Shown here: positions 9,682 through 64,000 of the stretch, piece by piece
Numbering within the stretch: the stretch's first letter is position 1
How the letters are laid out: each line of letters opens with the position of its first letter
Source of the DNA: an uncultured Planctomycetales bacterium
GTDB taxonomy: Bacteria; Planctomycetota; UBA1135
Direction of reading: 5' to 3'
DNA length: 64,000 nucleotides
NCBI GenBank assembly: GCA_964584805.1
Contig: CAZPAY010000009.1
Coordinates: 12,293-76,292 of the forward strand
The notes under the pieces: generated by a model
What the model was told of the DNA's origin: nothing
Databases searched by the model: none
Seen by the model: the letters and a program-made list of their open reading frames with translations, nothing else
Position numbers and translations under genes: made by a program

Positions 9682-11100
9682 ATGAGACTCGAGTTCAACC
9701 AAAGTCTACGAATGGAGCAAAAGCTCCTGCAATCGCCTCAAATGATTCAGGCGATGCAGGTGCTTCAGTTGACTTCACCTGAACTGCTTGAGAAAATCCA
9801 AGAAGAATTGCTCGACAACCCATTCTTAGAGGAAGAGGTAACTGAGACAGAAGCCGCTTCTGAGAGTGATTCTTCCGACACAAGCGATGACGAGCCCGAC
9901 ATGGAAAGTGTTGCCGAAATGGATCACATTTTGGAAAGCGGTATCGGAGGCACGAAACAAGTGTCCAGCGAATCGGATGGCTTTGACACGCTTGCACTCA
10001 TTTCCGCGGCACCGACTCATGCCGGCTTAGACACAATCCTGAGTGAGTTGCGAGTGGCCGACACAAGCGATGCCATTCTGCATGATGCAGAGGTGTTGCT
10101 GAGTTTGCTGGACCTCCGAGGTTTTCTACAAGGTGGTATCGCCGAAATCTCGGCAACTACTGGCCTCGCCGAAACCGAACTTCAAATGGCACTTGATGCC
10201 ATCCGGCAAGTCTCTCACCCAGCACTCGGCGCGGGCTGTATTCGAGAGGCCTATCTGCTTCAGATTGAGCGCCTTCCCGAACCTCACCCTCTCGCCGCGG
10301 CATTGGTTCGTGATGAATATGACAATTTGCTTGCGAATCGATTACCTCAAATCGCAACTTCGCTCGGCTGCGAGTTAGACGACATCCGTGAAGCTATCGA
10401 ATTGCTTGCTCAACTTGATTCGAGGCCACTTTCCGAATATGACGAAGAGCCGACATCGGTCATTTTGCCTGATATCTTGATTACAGAATCGACAGAGCAA
10501 GGAGAAAGTAAATATGTGATTAAGCTCCTTCGCGAGGGCGTGCCTGATGTGAAGTTCTTAAGTGAGAGTGCAGTGAAAGCTCTCGAACAAGCCAAAGGGG
10601 ATGACAAGCTTCATCGTTTTTTGATGAGTAAAGTAGAGCGAGCTCGGTGGTTTCTCGATGCCATTCAGCAACGGCGTAACACTTTGAGAAAAGTCGCCGA
10701 AGAGCTGGTCCGCCGACAGCGCGAATTTTTGGACTACGGCCCAGAGCATCTAAAACCACTCAGAATGCAAGAAATTGCCACAGCGGTAAACGTGCACCTC
10801 TCTACGGTTTCGCGAGCCATCCGTGGGAAATATGCGCAAACGCCTCAAGGCATTTTGCCACTTAAAGGGTTTTTCTCTGGCGGGCAAACCACCAGCCGTG
10901 GTGGCAATCGTTCGCGCGTTGCCATTCAAGAGCGCATCCGTGAAATTGTTGGCGCGGAAGATAGCAGCCACCCCTACAGCGATGAGGAAATCGTCCGCAT
11001 TTTGAAAGAACGCGATGGTGTGAAAGTTGCGCGCCGTACCGTTACGAAATACCGCAAGATGATGAATATTCCAGCCTCAACTTTGCGTCGCTCTTATTGA
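9682..11100 (+). CDS. rpoN: RNA polymerase sigma-54 factor
   Basis: Region I MEQKLLQSPQMIQAMQVLQL, an acidic region II, and a C-terminal RpoN box ARRTVTKYR. The ORF-track start at 9163 is antisense read-through of the neighbouring gene. The in-frame ATG at 9682 was chosen. Confidence 0.9.
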   Translation: MRLEFNQSLRMEQKLLQSPQMIQAMQVLQLTSPELLEKIQEELLDNPFLEEEVTETEAASESDSSDTSDDEPDMESVAEMDHILESGIGGTKQVSSESDGFDTLALISAAPTHAGLDTILSELRVADTSDAILHDAEVLLSLLDLRGFLQGGIAEISATTGLAETELQMALDAIRQVSHPALGAGCIREAYLLQIERLPEPHPLAAALVRDEYDNLLANRLPQIATSLGCELDDIREAIELLAQLDSRPLSEYDEEPTSVILPDILITESTEQGESKYVIKLLREGVPDVKFLSESAVKALEQAKGDDKLHRFLMSKVERARWFLDAIQQRRNTLRKVAEELVRRQREFLDYGPEHLKPLRMQEIATAVNVHLSTVSRAIRGKYAQTPQGILPLKGFFSGGQTTSRGGNRSRVAIQERIREIVGAEDSSHPYSDEEIVRILKERDGVKVARRTVTKYRKMMNIPASTLRRSY

Positions 11101-41416: not shown

Positions 41417-42544
41417 ATGCATCCACCTCGCGACCCTCAGCCATTCCATCTGCCCGACAGTGGCCAGCTTAATCCCAAGCTGCTTGCTCAGATGACCGAC
41501 ATGAGCCCCGACGCGATTTTGTTCATCGACACGCGTCACACCATCCGATATTGGAATCAGGGAGCCGAAGATTTGTTCGGCTATACCGCGGAAGAGGCAA
41601 ACGGTAGCTACTTTGACCTACTCGTCCCCCGCGATTTACTCAAGGCGGGCGAGCTCGACAACATTAAGGCTGCCACGGAAAAGACCGGCACAATCCATAA
41701 TTATGTCACGCAGCGCGTCACGCGCGACGGTCGCATCCTGACGGTTTCCCTTTCACGCACACGCATGCTCTCTTCGCAGGGCACAACGGTCGGATGGGGT
41801 GTCATCCTGCGTGACATTACCGATTGGGAAAGTTTGCACGCTGAGCTTGATGCCGCAAAACACTTAGGGCAAATTGGCGAGCTCGCTTCGCAAATTGCAC
41901 ATGAAGTCCGTAACCCGTTAGCCGGGATTCACGGCGCTTTGCAAATTTTGCGACGGCGCGCGGAATCGGGGTCGGAAGAAGACGAGATTTTTGCAGAAAT
42001 CGGTTCGGAAATTGGCCGGCTGGATCACCTCGTCACCGACCTTCTGCGCTTTGGCCGCCCCGCGAGTGCCCAAAAAAATCCAACCCAACTCGACGAATGG
42101 GTCGTCGACTGGATGGGGCAAATGGAGCGAGAGGCCACTCAACGCGATGTCTCTATGGTTTTCGAATCTGACCGTCCCACCCTGGTTGACCTCGATGGCA
42201 TGCTCTTGAGTCAAATATTGCGCAATCTGTTTGAAAATGCTCGCGAGGCAAAAGATGGTGCGCTCACGATTCACATGAAGTTAGATGTAAACGAGGGCAT
42301 GGCCAAGTTGACCTTTCAAGATGATGGCCCGGGAATCCCTAAAGAGATTCAGGAAAAGATTCTCGAACCATTCTTCACGACTAAAACCCGAGGCTCTGGG
42401 CTTGGGCTTGCCATCTGCCGACGGCATGTAGCCTCTCTGGGTGGCCACCTGCAAATCGTGCCTCCTCTCGACGACGGGCATGGCGCTTGCTTCGAATTGC
42501 GCCTTCCCCTCGCAGGGCCAGAAAAAACTAATCGCTTAGATTGA
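41417..42544 (+). CDS. Soluble PAS-domain sensor histidine kinase (NtrB-like)
   Basis: PAS domain (DAILFIDTRHTIRYWNQGAEDLFGY), H-box SQIAHEVRNPLAGI, N-box LRNLFENAREA, and G-boxes DDGPGIP and GSGLGLAI. No TM segment. Confidence 0.85.
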   Translation: MHPPRDPQPFHLPDSGQLNPKLLAQMTDMSPDAILFIDTRHTIRYWNQGAEDLFGYTAEEANGSYFDLLVPRDLLKAGELDNIKAATEKTGTIHNYVTQRVTRDGRILTVSLSRTRMLSSQGTTVGWGVILRDITDWESLHAELDAAKHLGQIGELASQIAHEVRNPLAGIHGALQILRRRAESGSEEDEIFAEIGSEIGRLDHLVTDLLRFGRPASAQKNPTQLDEWVVDWMGQMEREATQRDVSMVFESDRPTLVDLDGMLLSQILRNLFENAREAKDGALTIHMKLDVNEGMAKLTFQDDGPGIPKEIQEKILEPFFTTKTRGSGLGLAICRRHVASLGGHLQIVPPLDDGHGACFELRLPLAGPEKTNRLD

Positions 42545-43946
42545 ACTTTTCGATTCGATAACGAATCTGATCTCGGGTCAGGCCCAGCCATTTAGCAGCA
42601 CGCGTGCGATTACCATCGGCACGCTGAAGCGCATCTTCTACCCATGCCTTTTCTTGTCGGGTCAAATCGACTCCATCCGCAGGAAGCGACAAGAGCCCAT
42701 CTTCACACATGATTGCACTCGGCTCTGTCGAGGAAGGCGGGAAAGCTGTGGCGGCGCCCAAATCAGCAATCTCGGGTGGCAAATCCTCGAGCAAAATCTG
42801 TTGGCTGCCAGACAACAATACGGCACGCTCAATCGCGTTACGCAATTCTCGCACATTTCCAGGCCATGCATAAGCGTCAAGCGCAAGAAGGGCTTCCTCG
42901 GAAAAAGAATCAACTGAAACACCAAGCTCGCGCTGAAAACTGTCTAGAAAATGCTCGGCCAAAGGGCGAATATCTTCTAATCGATGACGCAAAGGAGGGA
43001 TTTCGATGGGTACGACTTTTAACCGAAAGAATAAATCTTGTCGGAAGTTGCCTGCCTCGACTTCCTTGGCGAGATCGCGGTGTGTTGCAGCCACGACACG
43101 TGCTTTTAAAGAAATTTCACGCGTGCCACCTACGCGTCGGAAGACGCGGTCTTCGAGTAGGGTTAGCAGTTTCGCTTGCATAGCAGGTGGCAAGTCACCG
43201 ATTTCGTCCAAGAACAGCGTGCCGCCAGCCGCCAACTCGGCGAGGCCAATTTTGGTTTCTTTTGCATCGGTGAATGCACCCTTTTCATGCCCGAACAATT
43301 CGGACTCGAGCAAAGTTTCAGTAATCGAAGTGCAAGAAACGGGGACGAATGGCATGTCATCACAGCCCGAAGATGAGGCGTGAAGAGTGCGCGCAGCCAA
43401 CCCCTTGCCTGTGCCACTCTCACCATTGAGCAAAACCGAACTTGCCCCGGCACGCCCCACCTTTTGCAGCAAGGTCAAAACCTTGCGACTGGCTGGCGAC
43501 TCTGCCACAGGCCAAGTAAAGCCCGCATCACGGCTCTGAAGCAGCTTGCCTTGGCGCAATCGTCGCTGCTCAAGAGCGCGACTCGATTTAAGCAAAAGGT
43601 CATCAAGTTCAAACGGCTTGGCCAAGTAATCAAAAGCCCCCGCTTGCATGGCCACGACGGCCCCTTGCAAGGAACCAAATGCCGTAATAATCAATACGGG
43701 CAACTGCGCGTCTTGAGCCTTAACCTCGGCAAGCAAATCCATGCCAGAGCCATCGGGTAATTTCAAATCGAGCACCAATAGGTCGGGCCAGTTTGAATCT
43801 AATTTTTCACGCGCCTCGGCAAGGTCAGCCGCTTCCTCGACAATAGCGCGCGCGCCTTCGAAAGCCGCACGCAGCGTCCAGCGAATCATCCGCTCGTCGT
43901 CAACGACGAGGATATTGGGTGCCGGTTCAGAAAAGCGAAAAGCCAC
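42528..43946 (-). CDS. Sigma-54-dependent response regulator (NtrC family bEBP)
   Basis: REC domain (ILVVDDE, LVLDLKLPDG), Walker A GESGTGKG, GAFTDA in place of GAFTGA, Walker B LFLDEIGDL, and HTH AAKWLGLTRDQIRYRIEKF. Its 3' end overlaps the convergent kinase gene by 17 nt. Confidence 0.9.
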   Translation of the reverse strand: MAFRFSEPAPNILVVDDERMIRWTLRAAFEGARAIVEEAADLAEAREKLDSNWPDLLVLDLKLPDGSGMDLLAEVKAQDAQLPVLIITAFGSLQGAVVAMQAGAFDYLAKPFELDDLLLKSSRALEQRRLRQGKLLQSRDAGFTWPVAESPASRKVLTLLQKVGRAGASSVLLNGESGTGKGLAARTLHASSSGCDDMPFVPVSCTSITETLLESELFGHEKGAFTDAKETKIGLAELAAGGTLFLDEIGDLPPAMQAKLLTLLEDRVFRRVGGTREISLKARVVAATHRDLAKEVEAGNFRQDLFFRLKVVPIEIPPLRHRLEDIRPLAEHFLDSFQRELGVSVDSFSEEALLALDAYAWPGNVRELRNAIERAVLLSGSQQILLEDLPPEIADLGAATAFPPSSTEPSAIMCEDGLLSLPADGVDLTRQEKAWVEDALQRADGNRTRAAKWLGLTRDQIRYRIEKFNLSD

Positions 43947-43965: not shown

Positions 43966-46581
43966 TTAGTTGAGACTCTTGGAAACAATTTCCCAGACAT
44001 CTTTCGACAACCCGTCTGTATCACGGATGCGAACTAACTGCTTTTTCATTAACGATTGGCGGTTTTCATCAAACTGCTTCCAAGTGCTGAATGGAGCCAC
44101 GATACGCGAGGCAATTTGTGGGTTCAGTTTGTCGAGTGCGAGCACTTGATCTCCCAAGAAGGTGTAGCCCGCGCCATCAGCGGCGTGGAAACGCACTTGG
44201 TTCGCAGAGAAGGTGCGAAGAAGCGCGCGTACATTGTTTGGATTCTTCAATGTAAACGCTTCGTGAGTCAACAAAGCCTGAACCTGCTCAAGCGTGTCGG
44301 CGCAACTTGAGCCCGCTTGAACCGCGAGCCATTTGTTAACCACCAAGACATCATCTTTCCACTTGGCGTAGAAATGAGCCAGCGCATCCTTTCGAGCCTC
44401 GCCACCCAGCTCGACGAGGCAACCCAAAGCAGCCATCGAGTCAGTCATGTTGCTTGCGTTTGCAAATTGAGTCTGCGCCATCGCAAGTGCAGCGTCATCT
44501 TCGAGACTCGACAAGTAACCCATGCAAAGATTATGCATCCGGCGACGGGCAATCGAATCTGCATCAGGTGAGTAAGGGCCATCAAACTCGGTGGCGGTGT
44601 AAACCGAATTCAACTCAGTCTTGAAAGTCTCGGCGAGTTTACGCACCACCCACTTACGAGCTTCGTGCAAGGCATCCGGGTCAACGACATCCATCTCACC
44701 TGCCAAAGTCGCCTCATCAGGCAAACGCAAAGCATAAGCTTGCAAGGAGCGATCCATCCCTTCGGCCTGCAGAGTGCGCCCCCAAGCGGCAACAAAAGTT
44801 TCCGGCAGAGTTGGCTCCTCACCGTTTTGGACGGCACGCATCACATCAAATACAACGCGCTCACCCAATTTTTGGCCGGCCTCCCAGCGATTAAAACTAT
44901 CCGAATCATGCGCCATCAAGAAAGCCAATTCTTGACTCGACTGCTCAAAACGCAAGCGCACGGGTGCCGAGAAACCTCGCAGCAAACTCGCGACGGGCGC
45001 ATCGCTGAGGCCATCAAAAACAAACTCTTGCGAGGCTTCGGTCAGCTCACAAACGCGCGTGCCGACGAGGTCGTTACCGTCTGAATCCAACAAACCAATC
45101 GCGACTGGAATATGGAAAGGCTTCTTTGTTTCTTGCCCTGGTGTGGCATCGCAAGATTGGGTCAGCTTTACCGTGTAAGTGCCTGCATCGGCCGACCAAG
45201 TGGTCCTGGCCTCAACGGTCGGCGTGCCGGCTTGTGCATACCAATTTTCAAACAAAGTGAAATCGACATCATTTGCGTCGGCCATTGCAGCGCGGAAATC
45301 ATCGCAGGTCACTGCACCGCCATCGTGGCGCTCAAAATACAAATCCATGCCTTTCCGGAAGCCTTCCGCCCCCAGCAAAGTGTGATACATCCGGATGATT
45401 TCGGAGCCCTTGTTGTACACCGTCACGGTGTAAAAATTATTCATCTCGACATATGAATCGGGGCGAATGGAGTGAGCCATTGGGCCGCCATCTTGAGGGA
45501 ATTGCATCGCGCGTAAGATGCTCACATTTTCGATGCGATTCACTGCGGCTGACCCCATGTCAGACGAAAACTCTTGATCGCGGAATACCGTCAAACCCTC
45601 TTTTAGAGTCAGCTGAAACCAATCCTTGCAAGTCACACGGTTGCCAGTCCAGTTGTGGAAATATTCGTGGCCAATCACGCCCTCGATGCGCTCGTAATCC
45701 AAATCTGTCGCCGTATCCGGCCGCGCCAAAACGAGAGATGAATTGAAAACATTAAGCGACTTGTTTTCCATCGCCCCCATGTTGAAATCATGCACAACAA
45801 CGATGTTGTACAAATCCAAATCGTATTCGAGACCGTAAACATCCTCATCCCACTTCATGGATTTCTTCAAGGAAAGCATGGCATGATCGAGGCGGTCTTC
45901 TGAGCCGTGATTCGTCCAAATCCAAAGGTCAACATTGCGGCCGCTCATGGTTGTGAAAGTATCTTTTTGGTGCGCCAAATCACCGGCAACCAAAGCAAAG
46001 AGATAACTCGGCTTCACAAAGGGGTCTTCCCAAATGGCCCAGTGTCGCCCGCCATCTGCGTCGCCACTATCCTTTAAGTTTCCGTTAGAAAGTAAAACGG
46101 GGTAAGTCGCCTTATCAGCCTCAATACGCACGGAATAGCGCGCCATCACATCGGGGCGATCCAAAAAGGGAGTAATCGCGCGGAAGCCCTCGGCCTCGCA
46201 TTGAGTGCAGTAGTTTCCGCTCGACTGATACAAACCCTCGAGGCGCGTGTTTTCCTGCGGTTTGATATTCACCTCAGTCGTCAAAATAAAAGCATCATGA
46301 TTAATTCCTTGAATCACTAGCTCGCTGCCATCGTGCGCCCAAGTCGCGGCATCAAGCGGCTCATCATCGACCCAAACACCGACGACCTCCATATGCTCCG
46401 CCTTCAAGCGCATCGCCTTACCTACGGCGCAGGTGCCGCGGCGCATCGCCGAATCAGCCCGCACCACGGTCACCTCTTCATTCAACTGAAAATCAAGTTG
46501 AACCGTATCAACAAAAAAGGGAGGCTCTTGGTAATCCTTGCGGAATTTCTCAATGGGCTGCGCGGGTGCGGATGTCGTCAT
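43966..46581 (-). CDS. pepN: Aminopeptidase N
   Basis: 871 aa with GAMENKSLN and the zinc motif HEYFHNWTGNRVT...E. Confidence 0.95.
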   Translation of the reverse strand: MTTSAPAQPIEKFRKDYQEPPFFVDTVQLDFQLNEEVTVVRADSAMRRGTCAVGKAMRLKAEHMEVVGVWVDDEPLDAATWAHDGSELVIQGINHDAFILTTEVNIKPQENTRLEGLYQSSGNYCTQCEAEGFRAITPFLDRPDVMARYSVRIEADKATYPVLLSNGNLKDSGDADGGRHWAIWEDPFVKPSYLFALVAGDLAHQKDTFTTMSGRNVDLWIWTNHGSEDRLDHAMLSLKKSMKWDEDVYGLEYDLDLYNIVVVHDFNMGAMENKSLNVFNSSLVLARPDTATDLDYERIEGVIGHEYFHNWTGNRVTCKDWFQLTLKEGLTVFRDQEFSSDMGSAAVNRIENVSILRAMQFPQDGGPMAHSIRPDSYVEMNNFYTVTVYNKGSEIIRMYHTLLGAEGFRKGMDLYFERHDGGAVTCDDFRAAMADANDVDFTLFENWYAQAGTPTVEARTTWSADAGTYTVKLTQSCDATPGQETKKPFHIPVAIGLLDSDGNDLVGTRVCELTEASQEFVFDGLSDAPVASLLRGFSAPVRLRFEQSSQELAFLMAHDSDSFNRWEAGQKLGERVVFDVMRAVQNGEEPTLPETFVAAWGRTLQAEGMDRSLQAYALRLPDEATLAGEMDVVDPDALHEARKWVVRKLAETFKTELNSVYTATEFDGPYSPDADSIARRRMHNLCMGYLSSLEDDAALAMAQTQFANASNMTDSMAALGCLVELGGEARKDALAHFYAKWKDDVLVVNKWLAVQAGSSCADTLEQVQALLTHEAFTLKNPNNVRALLRTFSANQVRFHAADGAGYTFLGDQVLALDKLNPQIASRIVAPFSTWKQFDENRQSLMKKQLVRIRDTDGLSKDVWEIVSKSLN

Positions 46582-48375: not shown

Positions 48376-50448
48376 GTGGCCTCCCTCCTTCCCTTCCTAA
48401 CCCTGCTCCTTGCCCAATACCCTGCTCCAACGGGGCATGCCGGCTATACCGAAGCAGGTGATTTCATTTTCCTCACCGATGAGGTGATGCAAATCGAGGT
48501 CACGATGGCTCCTTCCGACCTTGACTGGCTCTTGGCCAACAAAGACACGCGCGTCTACAAGTCATGCACCGTGCGCCTTTTGAATTCGGTAATGGACGAG
48601 ACCATTCTTGATGTTGGCATCCGTCCTCGCGGTAATAGCGCACGCGACGCCAAGAAAAATCCGTGGAAGTTTTCTTTTAATGAATTCGTTCCTGGCCGCG
48701 AAATCCATGGTTTGCAAAAAATGAATCTGGGTGGCGATGCGCCTGACCCAAGTTTGGCGCGCTCGACGGTTGGTTTTTATCTGCAACGCTCGATGGGAGT
48801 GCCTGCGCCTCGAAATCATTACGCATGGATCACCATCAATGATGGGTTGCTTGTTGACGGCTTGTATATTCATGCCGAGCAAATCGACGACGAATTTGTT
48901 GATGCGTGGTTTGGCAATGAAGACGGGGTGCTCTACAAATGCCGCCACAAAGATGTTGCCGCCAACTTGACTTGGAAATCCCCTGGCACGCCCGCCACTT
49001 ACGCGGCTCTCGAAGCTTATGAGGAAGAGCTACAAGGTGGGGATTACGCTCCGCTGGCTGACTTCATTGAGTTCTTGAAATTTTCCGATGATGCTACTTT
49101 TGCGGCAGAAATTCACCAGCATTTCAATATTGACGGCTTCCTTCGGGCGCAGGCTGTTGACATGGTTACGGGCCAATGGGATGGCTACTGGATTGGCGGC
49201 AACAATTACGATTTGTACCTCAACACCAAGACAAACCGCTTTGAATACATCCCTTGGGATTTAGACCACGCTTTTGGCTTAGATTATTGGATTTTCCCTT
49301 TCTTGTTTGGCACTAATTTCGCGCGCCGCGCTTATGACGGTTGGGGTGCGCATGGTTTTGGCGCACCCGCAATTTTGCTTACCCGGCTACTTGACATTCC
49401 ACAATACGAAGCGAAGCTGCAGCAATATTCGCGAGATTTGGTGACGGGGCCTTTTCACCCCTCCCGCCTTGGCCCATTCCTCGATCACCTTGAGTCGCTG
49501 ACGACTCCCCTCGCATTCACAGGTTCTTTTTCTGGCTCATCCATGGACAACGGGTGGACGAATACCAAAAACCAAGAGGCCTACTATTTCCCAGATAAGT
49601 ACAAAAGTCTTCAGAATCCAGACACTTGGGGTATGCACCCGTTTATTAAAGAGCGCACAGATTATGTGCTCTCGCACTTCCCTGTGCCGGCTTCCCCACC
49701 CGCGTTACGCATCAATGAGTTGGTCGCGAAAAACACGAGCATCCTTGCCGACGAAACAGGCACCTACGAAGACTATGTCGAGCTCTTCAACAACTCCGAC
49801 ACAACATTCGACGCAAGTGGCTACACGCTCACAGATGAGCCTGGCCTATCCGCAGGTTGGGAAATCCCAATGGGCACCACAATTGCCCCTTACACCACAC
49901 TCTTGATTTGGTGTGACAATGACGGTGCCGATGGGCCTCTTCATGCAAATTTCAAGCTGAGCGCGTCGGGTGACGGCGTTTACCTTTTCGCACCGAATGC
50001 GGCTGGATGTTTCCTCGTTGACTCCATGCTTTTTGATGCCCTCGGCGATGACCTCGCGATGGCGCGCTACCCCGATGGCGGCTCCTTCTCACAAATAGGT
50101 GTTGCACCGACACCTTTGGCCAGCAATGTACCAGCGGGTTTCTTACTTGCGCCCCTCGGAAATTGCGAGTCGCCGATGCAAATAGCCGTGACCGGTGCCA
50201 CGCCCCACGGCCTCATTGCCATCGTGGCGGGGATGAACACGGGCTCCTTCACCATTCCCGCAGGCCTTGCTTGCGCGGGCACCCCACTTGGCCTTGACGC
50301 GAGCGCCTTCCTCGCAGCCACCGGCGCGGCTGACGGCTCTGGCACACTACTCTTGCCGGCGACCCCTCCGGATTCGGCTTGCGGGGTGGTGCAACTCCAG
50401 GCCCTTGAGCTGGGCTCTTGCGCAACGACCCCCACAACGGGGCTTTAA
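48376..50448 (+). CDS. CotH-family (atypical kinase fold) secreted protein with lamin-tail-like domain
   Basis: CotH motifs [10 protein letters not shown] and [29 protein letters not shown]-like segment [10 protein letters not shown]...[21 protein letters not shown]. The GTG start lies 20 nt after tRNA-Arg. Confidence 0.75.
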
Positions 50449-55519: not shown

Positions 55520-56503
55520 TGCGGCCACGATGGCGCGTTTGAGCAGCACGCCCGCCATGCGTTTGCGGTAAGTCGGCGACATCGAAGTATTTTTCATCGG
55601 GCGCACTTCCTTACGGATGGCATCACTTAGCGTTTCAAAGCGATGGGGCCACGATGGGTCATTCGCGTCTGCGGGTGCACCTACGAGTTGCTCGGCGATG
55701 GATTCGTGCAAAAGTGGAACCGGCGCATAGGCTGTCGTCGCGACACGGGCCTCAGCAATCAAATTGTTTTCGATCCGTAGTGAAACGGCGACACCGCCCT
55801 CAGGAAAGTCGATGGTTTCACGCAGGCGCAGTTTTTGGTATGCCGATTGCCAATCGCGCGAAGCAGACGGCAAGATGACGCGGGTCAAAATTTCGGTGAC
55901 CGCCTTGTCGCGGAAACGGCGGATGCCATCTTCTCGGTAAACCTCACACATCGGCACGATGCGTGAGCCGTTATCGCCCACCCACTCAATGGATGCGCCC
56001 AAAACTAAAAGCATCGGCGCCATATCACCAGAATAAGCGGCCACGCAAATGTCACCTGGCTTGGGGACAACCCGACATGTGTCGGCTTCGGCTTTTAAGC
56101 ATGAGCCATGCGCTTCGCGCCAATTCTCCGTTTGGTTAAAGTGCCAGCAACGCGTGTCTAAGAGGAGGTTACCGCCCAATGTCGCCGTGCGACGAATCAG
56201 CGGTGAGGCCACCATCTTGGCCGTTTCTACGAGCGCGGGGAATTGTTTCGCCAACTCGGCATCTTGCGTAATGGCGTGCAAAGTGCGACCAGCGGCCAAA
56301 CTTCCTGGGCCGCCATCTTGCAATTCAGCGATGTGCTTTAAGGAAAGCAAATGGGGTTGCACATTGAGGCCCCACTTGTAATTGCAAAGCAAGTCTGTGC
56401 CGCCGCCAAGCCAATCGAAACCATCCGCAGCACATTGTTGCGCCAGCGAAACCGCTTTTGCGAGATTCGATGGGCGGTGCAACTTTAAATCAGCGATACG
56501 CAT
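55508..56503 (-). CDS. Xanthine dehydrogenase family FAD-binding (medium) subunit
   Basis: 331 aa with the FAD-binding LGGGTDLL motif and CoxM/XdhB-like length. TAATG junction with the large-subunit gene. Confidence 0.85.
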   Translation of the reverse strand: MRIADLKLHRPSNLAKAVSLAQQCAADGFDWLGGGTDLLCNYKWGLNVQPHLLSLKHIAELQDGGPGSLAAGRTLHAITQDAELAKQFPALVETAKMVASPLIRRTATLGGNLLLDTRCWHFNQTENWREAHGSCLKAEADTCRVVPKPGDICVAAYSGDMAPMLLVLGASIEWVGDNGSRIVPMCEVYREDGIRRFRDKAVTEILTRVILPSASRDWQSAYQKLRLRETIDFPEGGVAVSLRIENNLIAEARVATTAYAPVPLLHESIAEQLVGAPADANDPSWPHRFETLSDAIRKEVRPMKNTSMSPTYRKRMAGVLLKRAIVAALAQ

Positions 56504-58830
56504 TAATTTGCCTCCTGGGCGGCAGCCTCTGCTTCGGCTTTTGCCTTGCGGTCGAGCGCGGCCAAAACCCGCTCAGGGGTCATCGGCACCTCATGGATGC
56601 GCACACCAACGGCGTCATAAATCGCATTGGCAATCGCGGGAATAATGGGAGCAAGAGAGCCTTCTCCACATTCTTTGGCACCGAGCGGCCCCTCGGGGTC
56701 ATTGGATTCGACGACGATAATGTCCATTTCAGGAGTCTCAAGCGGTGACGGAATTTTGTAATCCAGGAAGGAGCCGTTAATCAGTTGGCCACCAGAATAT
56801 TTCATCTCTTCGGTCAAAGCTTGACCGATGCCCATATGCACCGAGCCCTCAAGTTGGCCCTCGACGGCAGTCAAGTTCAGGGCCTTGCCGCAATCATGCG
56901 CCGCCCAAACATTTTCAACACGGACGAAACCCGTCTCGGTGTCGACATCAACCTGAGCGACGAAAGCTTGATAGCTGTAACTTGGAGATAGGCCCGCGCC
57001 CGCACCCTTAAAGGTGCCACCCAATTTAGGCGCGTGGTAAACGCCTTTGGCGATTAACGCGCCATTGAATGCCAATGCCTCATCCAGTGCAGCCATGAAA
57101 TCAATACGCACCGTAGCGTCATCGTCGTGGATGTAGGTCTCACCCTCGCCTTTGCGGAAACCCGCCGCAGGCAAGCCAGTCATGCGCCCGCAAGCGCGCT
57201 GTAATTTGCGAAAAATCGCCTCACCTGCGCGCAGGGCGGCATTGCCCGCCATGAAGGTCACGCGGCTGGAATACGAACCCAAGTCAATCGGTGCAGTATC
57301 GGTATCACGCGCTAAAACGCGGCAGCGGCCCATATCAATACCAATCGCTTCGGCAACGCATTGCGCCAAAACCGTATCGGAACCTTGCCCAATATCGGCG
57401 GCCATCGAGTGAATCGTGACACCACCGTCCATGTCAATTTTTAGGTGCACGGTCGACATCGGCGTGCGCGTACGATGAATCGGAAGCGCAGAGCCCGAGA
57501 TAAAAAAGCCGCACCCCAGGCCAATGCCCTTGCCCGTAGGCAACTTACCGTGTTTGGAGTCCCAGTCAGAGGCACGGCGAGCCTTTTCGAGACACTCGGT
57601 AAAGCCATTGCTGGTAATACGGAATTGATTGAGAGTCGTCGTGTTTGACGGCAGAGCGTTTTGCATGCGAAAATCAAACGGGTCGAGCCCCAATTCAAGG
57701 GCGGCCTCATCAATCAAAGTCTCGAGCGCAAAACGCGCATTAACCGCACCATGCCCCCGCATCGCACCGGACGCCGGTTTATTGGTGTAGAGGCGGCGAC
57801 CGGCGTAACGGAATGCTTCCATGCGATAGGGACCTTGAGTCAGCACGCCGTTGTAATAAGTTGTGACCACGCCAAATGAGCCCCAAGCGCCCCCATCAAT
57901 TTCAGCGTCGGCATCAATCGCACTCAGAGTGCCTTCTTTACTGACGGCGACAGACAATTTGAATTCGGTAGGGTGCCGGCCGTGATTATTCAAAAAGACC
58001 TCATCGCGATCAAACATCAATCGCACGGGGCGGCCGCACTTACGCGCCAGCAAGGACGCCACCATCTCATGTGGGAATGGGTCAGACTTGCCGCCAAAAC
58101 CACCACCCACCAAAGGCTTATAAACACGGATGCGATGCATCGGCTCTTCGAGGACCTTCGCCAAAGCCATGTGCAAGTAATGCGGCACCTGCGTCGCCGA
58201 ATAGAGGCTCAATCGCCCGTTGGGCTCGGGGACGGCCACGCAGCCAATCGGCTCTGTGAAACCATGATTGACACCATGAAAAACAAACTCGGCTTTTTTG
58301 ATGACTTCCGCATCGGAAAAAGCAGAGTCAACTTCGCCGAACTCTTGCTCGACGACTTTATGGATATTGGTGCCGCCCACGGTCACCTCATGGAGAGGTG
58401 TATCTGTTTTTTCTAGCGCTGCTTTGGGGCGCAAAACGGGCTTGAGCACTTTGTACTCGACTTTGACCAAGGAGGCCGCCTTGCGCGCGCTCACCTCGTC
58501 TTCGCAAACCACCGCCGCAATGACAGCACCAGAATAAAGTGCATAGGGCGCGGGCAGTGCAGTCTCATCTTGAGAAATGGGCAAGACGCCAAATTTACGC
58601 GCCGTGCCTGGCTCGCCTGGAGCCAAACTACAAACAAAGCCCGGCACTTTTTCGGCCTCTGAAAAATCGACCGAAAGGATTTCAGCAAACGGATGAATCG
58701 AGCGTACGCAACGCGCGTGAACCATACCCTGGAAATGAAAATCCTCGATGAATTGACCGCGACCGGAAACCTTTTCGGCGGCATCGACAAGCGGTAAGCG
58801 CGAACCAACGGTGGAGGTACGCGGGCTCAT
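56503..58830 (-). CDS. Xanthine dehydrogenase family molybdopterin-binding (large) subunit
   Basis: 775 aa with an a/b-hammerhead N-terminus, VGGGFGGKSDP, SGAMRGHG, and a C-terminal GAKECGEGSLAP.IPAIANAIYDAVG. Confidence 0.9.
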   Translation of the reverse strand: MSPRTSTVGSRLPLVDAAEKVSGRGQFIEDFHFQGMVHARCVRSIHPFAEILSVDFSEAEKVPGFVCSLAPGEPGTARKFGVLPISQDETALPAPYALYSGAVIAAVVCEDEVSARKAASLVKVEYKVLKPVLRPKAALEKTDTPLHEVTVGGTNIHKVVEQEFGEVDSAFSDAEVIKKAEFVFHGVNHGFTEPIGCVAVPEPNGRLSLYSATQVPHYLHMALAKVLEEPMHRIRVYKPLVGGGFGGKSDPFPHEMVASLLARKCGRPVRLMFDRDEVFLNNHGRHPTEFKLSVAVSKEGTLSAIDADAEIDGGAWGSFGVVTTYYNGVLTQGPYRMEAFRYAGRRLYTNKPASGAMRGHGAVNARFALETLIDEAALELGLDPFDFRMQNALPSNTTTLNQFRITSNGFTECLEKARRASDWDSKHGKLPTGKGIGLGCGFFISGSALPIHRTRTPMSTVHLKIDMDGGVTIHSMAADIGQGSDTVLAQCVAEAIGIDMGRCRVLARDTDTAPIDLGSYSSRVTFMAGNAALRAGEAIFRKLQRACGRMTGLPAAGFRKGEGETYIHDDDATVRIDFMAALDEALAFNGALIAKGVYHAPKLGGTFKGAGAGLSPSYSYQAFVAQVDVDTETGFVRVENVWAAHDCGKALNLTAVEGQLEGSVHMGIGQALTEEMKYSGGQLINGSFLDYKIPSPLETPEMDIIVVESNDPEGPLGAKECGEGSLAPIIPAIANAIYDAVGVRIHEVPMTPERVLAALDRKAKAEAEAAAQEAN

Positions 58831-59345
58831 GATTGCCCCCCCACGGCTGAGGCATAACCACGGAAAGCTCGGTGCTCTTCAGCGCATCTCTCGACCGCAT
58901 CAAGAATTTTTGCAAAACCCGTGCAACGGCAGAGATTGCCTGAAAGTTCTTGCCGCAATTCATCCCGCGTGGGCTGAGGGTTGTCGCGCAAAATCACATC
59001 AGCCGTAAGCAAAAAACCAGGCGAGCAAAAGCCACATTGCGAAGCACCTGCATCCGCAAAAGTTTCTTGCAGAGGTGCGAAGCGATCGCCATCGGGCAGA
59101 CCTTCAAGCGACAGGATTTCTTGACCCTCGACCTCAGCTGCCAAAGTCAAGCACGACAAGACGGGCTCGCCCTCAAGCTGCACCACGCAACAACCGCAAG
59201 TGCCTAAATCGCACCCTCGCTTGGTCGCGGTCAAGCCTAACTGCTCGCGCAAAACATCAAGCAGAGTATCGGCATCGCGTACTAGCACGGTATGCGTGTG
59301 GCCATTAACCGTAAGGCGTAGGGTGGTGGAGGTGTTTTCAGACAT
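58827..59345 (-). CDS. Xanthine dehydrogenase family [2Fe-2S] (small) subunit
   Basis: Cys clusters CDLGTCGCC, CGFCSPG and CRCTG. The start is ATG 59345 (or TTG 59354). Confidence 0.9.
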   Translation of the reverse strand: MSENTSTTLRLTVNGHTHTVLVRDADTLLDVLREQLGLTATKRGCDLGTCGCCVVQLEGEPVLSCLTLAAEVEGQEILSLEGLPDGDRFAPLQETFADAGASQCGFCSPGFLLTADVILRDNPQPTRDELRQELSGNLCRCTGFAKILDAVERCAEEHRAFRGYASAVGGQS

Positions 59346-59362
59346 GGGTCGCAAGACCCATT

Positions 59363-60823
59363 TTAGGGCAAATCCCAGTGATATAAACCCGAGAAAAGGA
59401 ACTCGGCTATATCTTCATAAAGTGCACTCTGCCGTGAGTGATCGCGCGTTTCTGGAGTGAGAGAATCAATTGGCGTCGTTAACCTTAAAACCTGGCCCAT
59501 GGCATCTGTATTGCCGAGCAACATATTGCCAACCCACACAGGCGCAGTGTGGTCGAGAAAACCAGAACCGCCGGCTCCCAAGTCGCGCGACCATCGTCGA
59601 AGCCAAGCCTGGCGAGCCTCTTCGGTCATCTGCGATGGCCTACGAAAAAGCCATACGGGATAAAGCTTCATATTTTGCTCGTAGGAGCCGCGCTTGAAAG
59701 CTTCTTCGAAAAAGACATCATCTGCCGCATCGGAGGTCAAAGCCAAGACTAAGAACGCCGGCCAGTGCGTTTCGAAAGGCCGCTCAGTTGCGAGGAGGGC
59801 GCGAGCAAGACCGAGTCGCTGATAAGCCAAAGAAACCGCGGGTGCCCGACTATGGAGAGCGAGTCGCAGCAATCCGCCCACCTCGGGTAAGGCGAGTGTC
59901 TTGTCCGCAGGGAGTGGCAAATGGAGACCTAAATCTCCTGCGAGACCCCAGAGCCAACCAAGGGGCTGGGGCTGGCGAATTTTCTTAGACAGTGCGTTAA
60001 AAGCTACCGCTTGATTTTCTGGCTGAAACTCACGGAGTGCAAACAACCGTGAAGTCAATTCACCAGAAAAGGAGCGCTTTTCGAGCTTACTCCATGCGCG
60101 AGCTGGCTCACGAAAGGCCCCCATGAGCCATGCATCAGGCAACAAGCCCGAAAGAGTTTGATAGTGAGCCTTGCTGACTGGAGCGGAGCTCGACAAGAAA
60201 GAGCCCAAAACCTGAGCCGAAAGGCCACTTGGCGATTCACTGGCCAAGGGTGGCAGACCCTGTAACTGAGCAAGCATCGATAACAAAGCAAGCTCTTGTG
60301 GCGATGAGTGCTTGGCTAAAAAAAGAGCCGAGTCAACGGTTGGCATTTGGCCAGCGCGAGCAAGAAAACCAGCCAATAAACAGGAACGCTCAAAGGATGA
60401 GCGCGCAAATGCCTTGTCGCGATCAAGATTACGGCCTGCATCTGGATGAAAGGCTCCATAAAGCAAAAGAGCGTAAGCTCGTAATTCATCCGGTTTCCGG
60501 CCTTTCTTGACACGCTCAAGAAGGACTTCGAATGAGGCCGGAGTCCCGAGAAGGGCTGAAGCCAACAGGAGGGCGCGTTGTCGGACGGGCGCGCCTTTCT
60601 TCATTTCTTTTAGGAGCCAGCCTTCAAGCTCTACACCCTGTGCAGCAATCGTTTCAGCGGCAAGTCGACGAGCTGATGTGCTGCGATCGTTGAGCGCTCT
60701 CTGCACCTCGGGTACAGGGGATTGGGGCAACAAAGCCAAGAGCGGTAATGCAAGGGCAAAGAAAATCATGCTTAAGAAAGGGGACACTATCAGCATAGCG
60801 CCCCCACAACAAAGCCCCACCAA
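59363..60823 (-). CDS. Hypothetical helical-repeat (HEAT-like) protein with N-terminal signal/anchor
   Basis: 486 aa with a hydrophobic N-terminus. HEAT-like segments include ALNDRSTSARRLAAETIAAQG. The start is TTG 60823 or ATG 60796. Confidence 0.5.
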   Translation of the reverse strand: MVGLCCGGAMLIVSPFLSMIFFALALPLLALLPQSPVPEVQRALNDRSTSARRLAAETIAAQGVELEGWLLKEMKKGAPVRQRALLLASALLGTPASFEVLLERVKKGRKPDELRAYALLLYGAFHPDAGRNLDRDKAFARSSFERSCLLAGFLARAGQMPTVDSALFLAKHSSPQELALLSMLAQLQGLPPLASESPSGLSAQVLGSFLSSSAPVSKAHYQTLSGLLPDAWLMGAFREPARAWSKLEKRSFSGELTSRLFALREFQPENQAVAFNALSKKIRQPQPLGWLWGLAGDLGLHLPLPADKTLALPEVGGLLRLALHSRAPAVSLAYQRLGLARALLATERPFETHWPAFLVLALTSDAADDVFFEEAFKRGSYEQNMKLYPVWLFRRPSQMTEEARQAWLRRWSRDLGAGGSGFLDHTAPVWVGNMLLGNTDAMGQVLRLTTPIDSLTPETRDHSRQSALYEDIAEFLFSGLYHWDLP

Positions 60824-62035
60824 CTATTCCACTCGGACTCCAACGGGAGCCGTAAGCCGCCCCGTCTCAAAATCGAGGCTTTGAACGAACACATAAACCC
60901 CTGGTGGATAGAGTGCACCGATTGGAAGCATCCAAGAAAAGGAAGCCGAGCCACCGCCGTCGGCAAGCGTTGGGTGAAGGTGCAAAGGTCGAACCGTATG
61001 CGGAGCCAAGTCTGGCATGAGATAAATAGCCCCAATACCGCCGTATTGACCCACGGCCGTGGCTCTGCCAATTTGTAAACCATTGAAGCCCATGACCATC
61101 CCCCCCGGGGTGGCATTCCGCACACGGATTTGCACCGGATAACCGGGTTTGACAGAGGGCGAGCCCATCGAAGTTACGGGAGTCGGCTCCAGGGAAAAGG
61201 GAATGCGCGCAATGGCATCAATTTCGGCCGATTGCAAAAAGCCCCATTCAGCTTCCGCTACAAGCAATTGCCCCAACTCTGAGAACACTGCGCTATCTTT
61301 TGACGAAGGTGACTGCACCGTAAAGAGCATTCGCTTCTGCGCATCTAGGGTCAAACCTGTTACATCACCAATGGATTGCGTGAGGCCAGTCGCCGCATCC
61401 ACCATCGCCTGAATCTCATTTTCACGCCAAAGCACACGGCAAGTGCCAGTAGAAAAGGTATATGCCAAAACATCACCGTCAAGGATGTCGGCCAAAAGAG
61501 TACCCTTGAGCGTATCGCGCACGGAAAACCACAACTCATCTGGCGTGGGCCACGCAAGAGCGTCGATGTCGATGTAACCCGTAGTGGGCTGCAGAACGGA
61601 ATACAGCGTTGCTTCAGAAAGCAAGACATCCACGCCGGGGCCGGTAGTGCTTAAAGCGAGAATATCGCCGTCAATCAGACCGAATTCGCTGCGTTCGACA
61701 GAAAAAGCCAGTCGATGAGCTACTGGGTGAGAGGCCCGTTGCGGAATAAAGCAAAGGGCATCTAAGCCGGGCAGGCCGTCAAGGAAGCCGTCCTGATCTC
61801 GATCGCCAGCTAAAGTGCGCCATGCCTCTTGGGATAGAAGCACTTGCGCCGCATCACTTGATGCCGGCAGATGCAATACCGCCGAATCCGTCGAAACGGG
61901 ATCGCGCGGCAATCTGCAGTCTTGTGTCGTTGAACCAAGAAAGTCGTAGCTGACAGCAGCAGCGGTCGAACCTTGTGGGGGCGAAATGGTCTGAGCCAGA
62001 GTCGCCACGAGAAGTAGGGGTAGTAGTGCAATCAT
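60824..62035 (-). CDS. Hypothetical secreted protein
   Basis: 403 aa with the signal peptide MIALLPLLLVATLAQT. It has recurrent D-G-D-[IV]-L-A motifs and a beta-rich C-terminal module. No family was recognised. Confidence 0.5.
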   Translation of the reverse strand: MIALLPLLLVATLAQTISPPQGSTAAAVSYDFLGSTTQDCRLPRDPVSTDSAVLHLPASSDAAQVLLSQEAWRTLAGDRDQDGFLDGLPGLDALCFIPQRASHPVAHRLAFSVERSEFGLIDGDILALSTTGPGVDVLLSEATLYSVLQPTTGYIDIDALAWPTPDELWFSVRDTLKGTLLADILDGDVLAYTFSTGTCRVLWRENEIQAMVDAATGLTQSIGDVTGLTLDAQKRMLFTVQSPSSKDSAVFSELGQLLVAEAEWGFLQSAEIDAIARIPFSLEPTPVTSMGSPSVKPGYPVQIRVRNATPGGMVMGFNGLQIGRATAVGQYGGIGAIYLMPDLAPHTVRPLHLHPTLADGGGSASFSWMLPIGALYPPGVYVFVQSLDFETGRLTAPVGVRVE

Positions 62036-62157
62036 GCGGATGTTTCTCCGCTATGTAGACGGGTTCGCGCGTGAAGCGTGACAGTGGTAAATATTCCCCA
62101 CTCCTTGCGTGAAATACCCCAAGTATTCTGGCTGAAACAATTTGGATTAAAGATATC

Positions 62158-62177
62158 TGCAACCAATATCGGTCGCA
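62158..62177. promoter_or_regulatory. Imperfect dyad TGCAACC-N6-GGTCGCA, candidate enhancer (UAS)
   Basis: 6 of 7 positions are symmetric. The centre lies about 72 bp upstream of the -24 GG. Confidence 0.3.
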
Positions 62178-62237
62178 AACGCTTTTGGGCAAACGGGTTA
62201 AAGGTTTCAAGAAATAAAATCACCCTTTTTACAACTT

Positions 62238-62253
62238 TGGCACAAAACTCGCA
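62238..62253 (+). promoter_or_regulatory. Candidate sigma-54 (-24/-12) promoter
   Basis: TGGCACaaaacTCGCA has GG and GC spaced as in TGGCAC-N5-TTGC, with 2 mismatches to YTGGCACGrNNNTTGCW. It lies 38 nt upstream of the sigma factor ATG. Confidence 0.55.
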
Positions 62254-62290
62254 ATAGGTCAGTGGTTCGAAACATCGAAACCCCACCACC

Positions 62291-63490
62291 ATGACCAAAA
62301 CCCCCACCTTCGTCAAAGACGCGTTCACTCAAGGCCAGTTTTCTTGGGAACTCATTTCCCGCGCTTTCCGCACCGAAAAACGATTCGAAGCCGTCCACCC
62401 CGTGATGCGCGAGGTTTTGGTCGGTACCGATTTGCCTTTCTTGCCAGAAGTGCTTTCTCCTGATTTCCTTGAGCGCGATGAGTGCTCCAAGGCGCAAATC
62501 GCAGGGGATCCCCTGAGCATCTACTGGGCTGACCTGCGCCGCATCCGTCCGACGAGCCGCGAGGAAGAATTCATCCTCAACCGCGCGATTCACCTTTTGC
62601 GTGATTCTCTGCTCGACATCGTTGGTCACACGACGACTCCACTGACTGTGGCGATGCTGGAAGAGCACCTTTCACCATACTCCAATGTTTTGGAAGAAGC
62701 CCGTGAGCGCCCTATCGATGCCTACGCGACTTTAGAGGAAGAGATTCGATTGCGTCTCCAGCGGCGCTTGCGTGAGCTGCATGATGTGCAAAGCGCACTG
62801 ATTGACCGCAATTTGCATATCGTCCCGACAACTGCCCGCAAGTATCGCCATGTCGGCGTGCCATGGGAAGACCTGATTCAAGAAGGCAACACTTCTTTGC
62901 TGCGTGCTGTTGAGCGTTACAACCGAGAAGAGGGGGTGCGGTTTGCGAGCTATGCATCTTGGTGGGTGCAACAAGGTATTTTGAAGGCGCTCAGTTTTCA
63001 AAGCCGCACTGTGCGTCTGCCCGTTTACTTGGCGCAAGCCCTACACCGGGTACGCGATGTCATGACAAACGCAGAAGATACTTTGACCGTTGAGCAGATT
63101 GCAGAAAAGACGAATCTCACACCAGATCGCGTCGAGCGTGCACAAAAGGCTGACCGGCAATGCTTGTCACTAAATCGCACCCCCGCCAACGATGACGAAG
63201 AGTCTGGCTTTGCCGACCTGTTACCTGACCTACGCGACATCCCGTTACCAGACTGCCCCACTTCTGCTGAATTGCGGGCCAAGCTTGAGCAATTGCTTGA
63301 CCGTTTGCCTGCCCGCGAAGCACTTGTTTTGCGTTTGCGATTCGGTTTCGAAGATGGCACGCCAAAAACTCTTGAGGAAGTTCGCATCCGCCTTGGTGTT
63401 TCCCGCGAGCGCGTCCGTCAACTGCAGGCGCAAAGCCTGCGTCGCTTGGCACGCCCGGCGCCGAAAAAAGAGCTTCATAAGTTTGTTTAA
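62291..63490 (+). CDS. Alternative sigma-70-family sigma factor (group 2/3-like)
   Basis: Region 2 DLIQEGNTSLLRAVERYNREEGVRFASYASWWVQQGI, region 3, and region 4.2 TLEEVRIRLGVSRERVRQLQAQSLRRL. At 399 aa it diverges from the primary-sigma 2.4 consensus. Confidence 0.85.
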   Translation: MTKTPTFVKDAFTQGQFSWELISRAFRTEKRFEAVHPVMREVLVGTDLPFLPEVLSPDFLERDECSKAQIAGDPLSIYWADLRRIRPTSREEEFILNRAIHLLRDSLLDIVGHTTTPLTVAMLEEHLSPYSNVLEEARERPIDAYATLEEEIRLRLQRRLRELHDVQSALIDRNLHIVPTTARKYRHVGVPWEDLIQEGNTSLLRAVERYNREEGVRFASYASWWVQQGILKALSFQSRTVRLPVYLAQALHRVRDVMTNAEDTLTVEQIAEKTNLTPDRVERAQKADRQCLSLNRTPANDDEESGFADLLPDLRDIPLPDCPTSAELRAKLEQLLDRLPAREALVLRLRFGFEDGTPKTLEEVRIRLGVSRERVRQLQAQSLRRLARPAPKKELHKFV

Positions 63491-63538: not shown

Positions 63539-63573
63539 GCGGCGAGCAAGGTAAAATCTACCATGCTCGCCGC
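63539..63573 (+). other. 10-bp perfect hairpin overlapping the next start codon
   Basis: gcggcgagca (63539..63548) pairs with tgctcgccgc (63564..63573). The 15-nt loop contains aagg and the A of the ATG. Confidence 0.5.
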
Positions 63574-64000
63574 TCTCGCTTTTTCGGCTGTCCTTCTGTT
63601 ACCCAACACCCTGTTTGCGCAGGCTGCGTCTTTTTTACCCGCCGCAGACGAAGTCCTTTTAACGGCCGAGCCGCCAGTCCCTTCTTACCTAGATGCACTG
63701 CGCAAAACGGCCGCTACAGGAAGTATCCCTAAAGAGGTAATCGCGGAATTGAGGCCCACGAACAAAGCACAAACCGAAGCGCTACGGTTTTTGCTTCAAG
63801 TCGGCAACACAGCGGAAGTCAGGTTGGTTGCGATATTGGCTGCGAATAGCGCCGTTGACGCGCCACTAACGCTTGAGTTATTGCGGGTGGGCGTTTCGCT
63901 GCAAGACGAAGCCGCTGCTTTGGCGTGTTTGTTGTCTCCGCTGGGTGCGCCCGCCGTGAGTTTGCCGAGCTTGGCTTATCTAGCACAAGATGCAGGGGCT
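63563..64000 (+). CDS. Hypothetical secreted helical-repeat protein (3' end outside window)
   Basis: Not in the ORF track, and open to the window edge. My translation gives MLAALAFSAVLLLPNTLFAQAAS (a signal peptide), followed by 146 stop-free codons with HEAT-like segments. Confidence 0.5.
   Translation, partial: MLAALAFSAVLLLPNTLFAQAASFLPAADEVLLTAEPPVPSYLDALRKTAATGSIPKEVIAELRPTNKAQTEALRFLLQVGNTAEVRLVAILAANSAVDAPLTLELLRVGVSLQDEAAALACLLSPLGAPAVSLPSLAYLAQDAGA

Follow-up and report, generated by a model that had tools for sequence, protein, structure and literature searches.

The window analysed here, a stretch of 64,000 nucleotides (nt) on contig CAZPAY010000009.1 of an uncultured Planctomycetales bacterium, contains at 62291..63490 (+) a gene for a sigma-70-family factor of 399 amino acids (aa). 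A 255-base-pair (bp) intergenic region separates this gene from a divergently oriented gene, and within this region a candidate sigma-54-type core promoter is located at 62237..62253 (+), as indicated by the sequence itself, by a position weight matrix (PWM) and by conservation among orthologues. At 62238..62253 the (+) strand reads TGGCACaaaacTCGCA; together with the T at -27 (62237) the element is TTGGCACaaaacTCGCA, comprising T(-27), TGGCAC (-26..-21), aaaac and TCGCA (-15..-11). In the resulting layout, T(62238)GGCAC-aaaac-TCGCA(62253), the GG (62239-40) and the GC (62251-52) show the exact GG-N10-GC spacing, and the -13/-12 doublet of the site is the canonical GC. Compared with the consensus YTGGCACGrNNNTTGCW, 13 of the 15 specified positions match; the two departures are an A instead of the G at -20 and a C instead of the T at -14. 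The site is correctly oriented towards the sigma gene, with a gap of 37 nt to the ATG at 62291. These readings bear out a preliminary description of this DNA, which had reported a sigma-54-like site with exact GG/GC spacing and two mismatches in front of the 399-aa sigma gene.

The sigma factor comprises regions 1.2, 2, 3 and 4 in addition to a family-specific N-terminal part (Pfam models for regions 2, 3 and 4; NCBIfam). The region 1.2-like segment reads DPLSIYWADLRRIRPTSREEEF, alignment to the TIGR02997 (RpoD/SigA) model begins at residue 73, and region 4.2 is RpoD-like. The best NCBIfam matches were the RpoD/SigA models with 178-198 bits, compared to cut-offs of 354-572; the RpoS model yielded 172 bits (cut-off 379) and the FliA/WhiG model 76 bits (cut-off 190). 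The protein therewith reaches none of the NCBIfam equivalog cut-offs (RpoD, RpoS, RpoH, FliA). Group 1 sigma factors carry the motif YATWWIRQAITRxI. The present protein falls outside group 1 RpoD/SigA, and its region 2.3/2.4 is diverged, reading YASWWVQQGILKAL. Due to the scores below all cut-offs and the diverged region 2.3/2.4, we refer to it as an RpoD-like alternative sigma factor, and the label "alternative", as far as sub-cut-off scores can support it, appears reasonable.

Approximately 40 full-length orthologues of the sigma factor were found with 46-60% identity, plus one partial match at 92%, and every one of them with a source name derives from a metagenome-assembled genome (MAG) of the Planctomycetota. 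A scan of GTDB genomes with an 8-sequence N-terminal alignment as query, a metagenome scan, which contributed mostly redundant loci and added little, and individual protein look-ups together provided 22 non-redundant loci including the window, with sigma protein identities of 46-84%. In 20 of these 22 loci, TGGCAC-N7-G is present on the coding strand at most 230 nt upstream of the sigma gene, as compared to 0.33 loci expected from shuffles; the exceptions are L027 with CGGCAC and L021 with CTGGCAG...GGCC. The site consensus over the 22 loci is T-TGGCAC-G-NN-A-T-T-C-G-H-W. In the upstream half, T(-27) is found in 15, T(-26) in 21, GGCA (-25 to -22) in all 22, C(-21) in 21 and G(-20) in 18 of the 22 sites. 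The middle part shows A(-17) in 17, T(-16) in 16, T(-15) in 17 and C(-14) in 16 sites. Further downstream, G(-13) is invariant (22/22), position -12 is occupied by A (9), C (8) or T (5) and never by G, and A or T is present at -11 in 21 sites. The intergenic DNA around the motif cannot be aligned between distant members, and a 17-nt PWM run over both strands of ~240 kb of collected sequence yielded only one other match of at least 15 bits. These results support the notion that this sigma gene family is preceded by a -24/-12 element that is conserved and constrained in its position. The outgroup locus L026 (35% identical) lacks the TGGCAC motif and contains a good match to a sigma-70-type promoter upstream instead, TTGACA-N17-TAGGAT (about 1760..1800), so that the sigma-54 promoter seems restricted to the clade of at least 46% identity. 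In locus L009, a second GG-N10-GC match, TGGACGGCAATTCGCA (~3878..3893), precedes the main TGGCAC site by ~70 nt, and at the equivalent place L017 harbors a similar TGGACGGCAATTCGGG without the GC; this extra site may represent a vestigial or duplicated promoter.

Throughout the 22 loci, the conserved blocks of the motif are 5 nt apart, a spacing that fits a sigma-54 -24/-12 promoter and no -35/-10 promoter. T(-26) is 27-89 nt away from the ATG (standard deviation 19), in no locus closer than 27 nt, and values of 27-30 nt are found in six loci that represent four or more sub-lineages. The motif hence approaches the gene just as far as a sigma-54 promoter that sets the start of transcription can, a limit by which an operator would not be bound. 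In these six loci, transcription would start at the A of the ATG or one base before it, which would give rise to leaderless mRNAs. For the window, the sigma-54 geometry with T at -26 places the predicted start near 62264, in agreement with the 27-nt minimum distance between motif and ATG. The predicted leader (62264..62290, +) would comprise 27 nt without a Shine-Dalgarno sequence, ending with ...CCCCACCACC before the ATG, and an Rfam search of 61800..62500 revealed no known RNA element in it. Sigma-gene leaders without a Shine-Dalgarno sequence, in which C-rich CCACC or GCCACC repeats precede the ATG, were likewise observed in L001, L002, L005-L008, L011, L018 and L020 (in the window at 62275..62290).

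Applying sigma-70 promoter criteria to the window region and to all 22 upstream regions returned zero matches. We also considered TTGGCA as a sigma-70 -35 element, which was rejected because none of the loci has a -10-like hexamer at 16-18 nt downstream of TTGGCA. The Salmonella sigma-54 sites compiled in PMC3844500 include some with experimental validation; in this list, the glnA site (TGGCACAGATTTCGCT) contains TCGC, and the hydN site (TGGCACGATTCGTGTA), with the sequence GTGTA, has GT at -13/-12. The TCGC of the window site corresponds to the glnA variant, and the GT at -13/-12 found in locus L010 to the hydN variant. The idea that the unusual -12 element is a novelty is weakened by these Salmonella counterparts. 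Taken together, conservation and geometry make it likely that the window site is a functional sigma-54 promoter.

Within the window, TGGCAC-N5-TNGC occurs twice, with ~0.73 occurrences expected. The second copy, TGGCACTAATTTCGCG at 49308..49323 (+), is located inside a CotH/lamin-tail-domain gene (48376..50448), which leaves the site upstream of the sigma gene as the only intergenic one with correct spacing, as had been claimed. No other match in the window was convincing as a sigma-54 promoter, the copy at 49308 being intragenic and that at 12695 having GG-N9-GC spacing and lying inside an open reading frame (ORF). Matches with up to two mismatches to the consensus are at background level in the window (51 observed, 46.8 expected). 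Ranking the site by PWM had been suggested as a check. When run on the window with an orthologue-trained matrix, the site came out at the top with 18.6 bits, although 3 of 20 shuffles reached the same score.

Upstream of the promoter, we observed two GGGAA-N1-4-TTCCC palindromes in all 22 loci, with a centre-to-centre distance of 22.0±0.9 bp. Measured upstream from T(-26), the centre of the distal palindrome is at 137.9±5.3 bp and that of the proximal one at ~116 bp. For the distal palindrome this distance is 136-139 bp in 13 loci and 145.5-147.5 bp, approximately one helical turn further, in four loci including the window. Here, the distal palindrome GGTAAATATTCCC (62086..62098; inverted repeat I2, 62083-62102), a candidate binding site for a bacterial enhancer-binding protein (bEBP), has its centre 145.5 bp upstream of T(-26), and the weaker proximal palindrome GTGAAATACCC (62109..62119) is centred 123.5 bp upstream, 22 bp from the distal one. 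Relative to the predicted start, the two lie roughly 170 and 150 bp upstream. When the region was compared with L001 and L012 (84% identity across the first 167 residues of the sigma factor), four conserved intergenic blocks emerged, namely the start region of the divergent gene, GTGACAGTGGTAAATATTCCCCAC, TTGCG.GAAA.ACCCCA, and the promoter. Both palindromes and the promoter block are retained in these relatives, the DNA between them much less so; the promoter-proximal part of the spacer, CAAACG.GTTA...CAAGAAATA, is kept in L001 and L012 and not in more distant loci. The length between palindromes and promoter is kept while its sequence changes and the length downstream of the promoter drifts, as predicted for looping that depends on the face of the helix. 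This pattern suggests that the GGGAA/TTCCC palindromes probably serve as the enhancer of the promoter.

The preliminary description had assigned this role to another element, the dyad TGCAACC-N6-GGTCGCA at 62158..62177. The dyad is present as described, with 6 of 7 positions complementary and its centre ~72 bp from the -24 GG. As an enhancer it did not hold, since it is gone in the closest relatives L001 and L012 and has no fixed counterpart elsewhere; with its stretch among the least conserved of the intergenic region, it was rejected as an activator site. The A/T-rich tract that had been linked to DNA bending is real, and the A/T content of the spacer exceeds the locus average in 22 of 22 loci. 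However, it reflects generic intergenic composition, and no conserved IHF-like motif was found in the spacers of the 22 loci.

In line with the preliminary description, the window encodes rpoN and two bEBPs, as confirmed by their Pfam domains. The full-length rpoN gene (9682..11100, +; start codon checked) specifies a sigma-54 factor with the Pfam domains AID, CBD and DBD and a canonical RpoN box. The protein aligns end to end with solved sigma-54 PDB chains (E=7e-54), and the ARRTVTKYR box as well as the arginine of the helix-turn-helix (HTH) are conserved. One bEBP gene (8242..9633, -; Pfam), encoding a REC-AAA+-HTH_8 protein with a GAFTGA loop, is an alternative candidate for the activator; it is divergent from rpoN at a distance of 48 bp. 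The program-made ORF list over-extends both rpoN and this adjoining bEBP gene. The best candidate activator is an NtrC-family bEBP with REC, sigma-54 AAA+ and HTH_8 domains and a GAFTDA loop (42528..43946, -; Pfam). A PAS histidine kinase gene (41417..42544, +; Pfam) is convergent with it and encodes the probable sensor partner of this bEBP. The 3′-ends of the kinase and bEBP genes overlap by 17 nt (42528..42544), likewise in L029 and L030. Genes of two-component pairs are normally co-transcribed, and a convergent arrangement is unusual.

The preference for the bEBP at 42528..43946 derives from locus L021, in which the sigma orthologue is flanked on its divergent side by a REC-AAA+-HTH_8 bEBP gene and both palindromes lie in the intergenic region between the two. 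Over its full length, the L021 protein is 63% identical to bEBP 42528..43946, as compared to 36% for the rpoN-adjacent bEBP. The orthologue group of bEBP 42528..43946 shows 58-86% identity with a nearly invariant C-terminal HTH, and several of these orthologues are located on contigs that match sigma-orthologue contigs in listed length (383,199; 252,614; 111,794; 304,535; 266,383; 150,618 nt), so that bEBP and sigma orthologues probably share the same contigs. The pepN-bEBP-HK-purD synteny (HK, histidine kinase) is also present in L029 and L030. The adjacency in L021 and the properties of the orthologue group make bEBP 42528..43946 with the PAS kinase the best candidate, and it is possible, if tentative, that it activates the promoter.

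Two further features of this bEBP were considered. The palindrome GGAAACAATTTCCC (43981..43994), 35 nt before the bEBP gene, was rejected as an autoregulatory site, because it is part of the conserved stretch that encodes the C-terminus of PepN and has no counterpart in L029; it is probably coincidental. GGGAA/TTCCC-type palindromes are not enriched in the window, with 8 observed and 8.7 expected. Moreover, the idea that the GAFTDA loop is specially matched to the odd -12 element was rejected: among related Planctomycetota bEBPs (P0121-P0240), the sigma-54-contacting loop reads GAFTDA in 108 of 120 proteins and GSFTDA in 11.

On the other side of the intergenic region, the divergent gene (60824..62035, -) encodes a 403-aa protein with a signal-peptide-like N-terminus and without a Pfam or NCBIfam match, and its synteny with the sigma gene is kept in most orthologous loci. 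By eye, a promoter-like element of this gene, TGTCAC-N16-CGTCTA, was noted at 62056..62083 (-); it resembles extracytoplasmic function (ECF) promoters and abuts the distal palindrome. Correspondingly, TAGACG...GT[GTA]AC was seen by eye beside the divergent start codon in most loci. TGT[CAT]AC-N16-CGTCT occupies the same place, ~20 nt from a Shine-Dalgarno sequence and ATG, in L001-L011, L018-L020, L023, L025, L027 and L028 (also by eye). This element might be the target of an ECF sigma factor or of the neighbouring 399-aa sigma factor. The gene order around the sigma gene is conserved (window 56503..62035, -, and 63563..64000, +; L018-L028), with a xanthine-dehydrogenase-like molybdenum enzyme, its 2Fe-2S subunit and two signal-peptide proteins of ~475 and ~395 aa without family match on one side. 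Downstream of the sigma gene follows a gene for a ~300-aa protein without family match, which in the window copy has a signal-peptide-like N-terminus. None of the inspected sigma-gene neighbourhoods contains flagellar genes.

Considering all elements, we propose that 62237..62253 would act as a functional sigma-54 promoter with a start at ~62264 and as the main promoter of the sigma gene 62291..63490. An NtrC-family response regulator would bind both GGGAA-N1-4-TTCCC palindromes, two helical turns apart and ~150-170 bp upstream of the start, and would reach the closed complex by looping over the A/T-rich spacer. The most likely activator would be bEBP 42528..43946, with the adjoining PAS histidine kinase as sensor, resulting in a cascade that runs from a signal through kinase, bEBP and sigma-54 to the RpoD-like sigma factor. 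We regard this composite explanation as reasonably likely. The earlier interpretation is thereby supported in part, namely for the promoter, whose motif is present in 20 of 22 loci against 0.33 expected, and for the sigma cascade, whereas the dyad proposed as enhancer is lost in L001 and L012.

Several observations weigh against this explanation and are best considered together with the alternatives they favour. On window statistics alone the site is not significant, and because this single-window statistic is weak, significance was drawn from the conservation among orthologues; since the 22 loci are homologous, their counts are non-independent events. A chance match, with the dyad at 62158..62177 as the relevant upstream site, would be in line with the ~0.73 TGGCAC-N5-TNGC matches expected per window and with the 3 of 20 shuffles that reach the PWM score, yet its probability is negligible in view of the motif at the orthologous place in 20 of 22 loci (0.33 expected) and of the absence of the dyad from the closest relatives. 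A further concern is C(-12), which is nearly invariant in textbook sigma-54 promoters and is found in just 8 of the 22 orthologous sites. This lack of conservation, the poor characterization of planctomycete promoters and the resemblance of TTGGCA to a -35 hexamer would be consistent with TGGCAC-N5-TCG being an operator for an ordinary transcription factor or a site for a different sigma factor, with the gene read from an unrecognised sigma-54-independent promoter. We consider this improbable, as no -10-like element follows TTGGCA at 16-18 nt in any locus, and sigma-54 is favoured by the 5 nt between the blocks, by the minimum of 27 nt to the ATG and by the match at 13 of 15 consensus positions. 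It is also unlikely that sigma-54 binds the site as just one of several inputs, in a minor conditional promoter or a poised or repressive complex, with most expression coming from elsewhere. Such an arrangement is known for rpoH, glmY and glmZ of Salmonella and E. coli, where coexisting sigma-70 promoters mask the effect of rpoN (PMC3844500). In the present case, however, no sigma-70-like promoter was detected in the 22 upstream regions, and the six loci with the motif right against the start codon leave no room for a downstream promoter.

As regards the upstream elements and the activator, the palindromes are also located at about -43 and -65 with respect to the point where transcription of the divergent gene probably begins. 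They may thus serve both promoters, or the divergent one alone, together with a regulator that is not a bEBP. The assignment of the bEBP is based on one locus, L021, whose promoter (CTGGCAGgtggaAGGCC) is the weakest of the 22 with 0.5 bits and which is the sole locus with an adjoining bEBP. Furthermore, the L029 bEBP gene has no palindrome in front of it, and the presence of rpoN has been established for the window. Because the L021 promoter is the weakest, L029 lacks the palindrome and the palindromes lie near the divergent start, the argument for the activator is circumstantial. It is conceivable, if rather unlikely, that the sigma-54 promoter is real and the palindromes serve just the divergent secreted-protein operon via a non-bEBP regulator, the enhancer being elsewhere, the activator acting independently of a site as reported for Borrelia Rrp2, or the activator being bEBP 8242..9633. 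The abutment of the palindromes on the TGTCAC-N16-CGTCTA element, the L029 bEBP gene without a palindrome and the location of the second bEBP next to rpoN could be understood in this way. On the other hand, the distance between palindromes and promoter is conserved while the intervening sequence is not, and the palindromes persist in L021 and L024 despite a different divergent neighbour, which in L021 is the orthologous bEBP itself.

A literature search returned nothing on sigma-54 promoters in Planctomycetota, and sigma-54 regulation in this phylum appears to be undescribed. The locus would provide a conserved, testable module, in which a core promoter and a two-site enhancer in fixed phase are joined by a candidate kinase and bEBP, with an RpoD-like sigma factor as output. 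For an uncultured marine lineage, it would open an entry point to the sigma-54 regulon and to the genes controlled by a new sigma family. More speculatively, and on present evidence doubtful, the RpoD-like sigma factor might be expressed across this uncultured planctomycete lineage solely from a sigma-54 promoter under control of a two-component bEBP, with leaderless mRNAs in several members, and with the relaxed position -12 (A, C or T) as a lineage-specific tuning of the -12 "lock". In that case the module would be the master switch of a major transcriptional programme in these bacteria, and no sigma-54-to-sigma cascade would have been described in Planctomycetota before it.

Sigma-54 control of sigma-70-family genes has precedents in other bacteria. 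In the Rrp2-RpoN-RpoS system of Borrelia burgdorferi, a sigma-54 promoter precedes the sigma-70-family gene rpoS (PMC1976401; Smith et al. 2007, cited in PMC3162934). The present locus resembles this system in the -24/-12 promoter directly before a sigma-70-family gene, in the candidate REC-AAA+-HTH activator and in the proposed control of one alternative sigma factor by another. It differs in that the target is RpoD-like and not an RpoS orthologue, in its putative conserved two-site enhancer, and in the phylum. For Borrelia Rrp2, activation independent of any defined upstream site has been described. Similarly, a sigma-54 promoter (P6, TGGCACGGTTGTTGCT) precedes the sigma-70-family gene rpoH of E. 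coli and Salmonella; as far as the work is cited in PMC3844500, it is one of several rpoH promoters, its effect being masked by sigma-70 promoters (Janaszak et al. 2007). The likeness lies in a sigma-54 promoter in front of a sigma-70-family gene, whereas no sigma-70-like promoter is detectable here in the 22 orthologous regions.

In the flagellar hierarchies of Vibrio, Pseudomonas, Legionella and Campylobacter, sigma-54 together with FlrA, FleQ or FlgR activates fliA, which encodes sigma-28. Control of a second sigma factor by sigma-54 and a bEBP is proposed here too; in contrast, the 399-aa sigma factor is not FliA-like and its neighbourhood lacks flagellar genes. With the NtrC-glnAp2 system the locus shares the core TGGCAC-N5-TCGC, as in glnA, and tandem dyads more than 100 bp upstream that overlap another promoter region. 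The NtrC sites of the glnAp2 enhancer are ~32 bp apart. Here, the spacing is ~22 bp, i.e. two helical turns, and the half-site GGGAA/TTCCC is unrelated to the NtrC site; bEBP 42528..43946 itself stays below the NtrC equivalog cut-off (404 versus 559 bits, NCBIfam). The locus would represent a new case of the established theme of cascades from sigma-54 to sigma-70-family factors and no new principle, set apart from the known cases by the family of its target, its phylum, its putative enhancer with two clearly conserved sites and the apparent lack of a companion sigma-70-type promoter.

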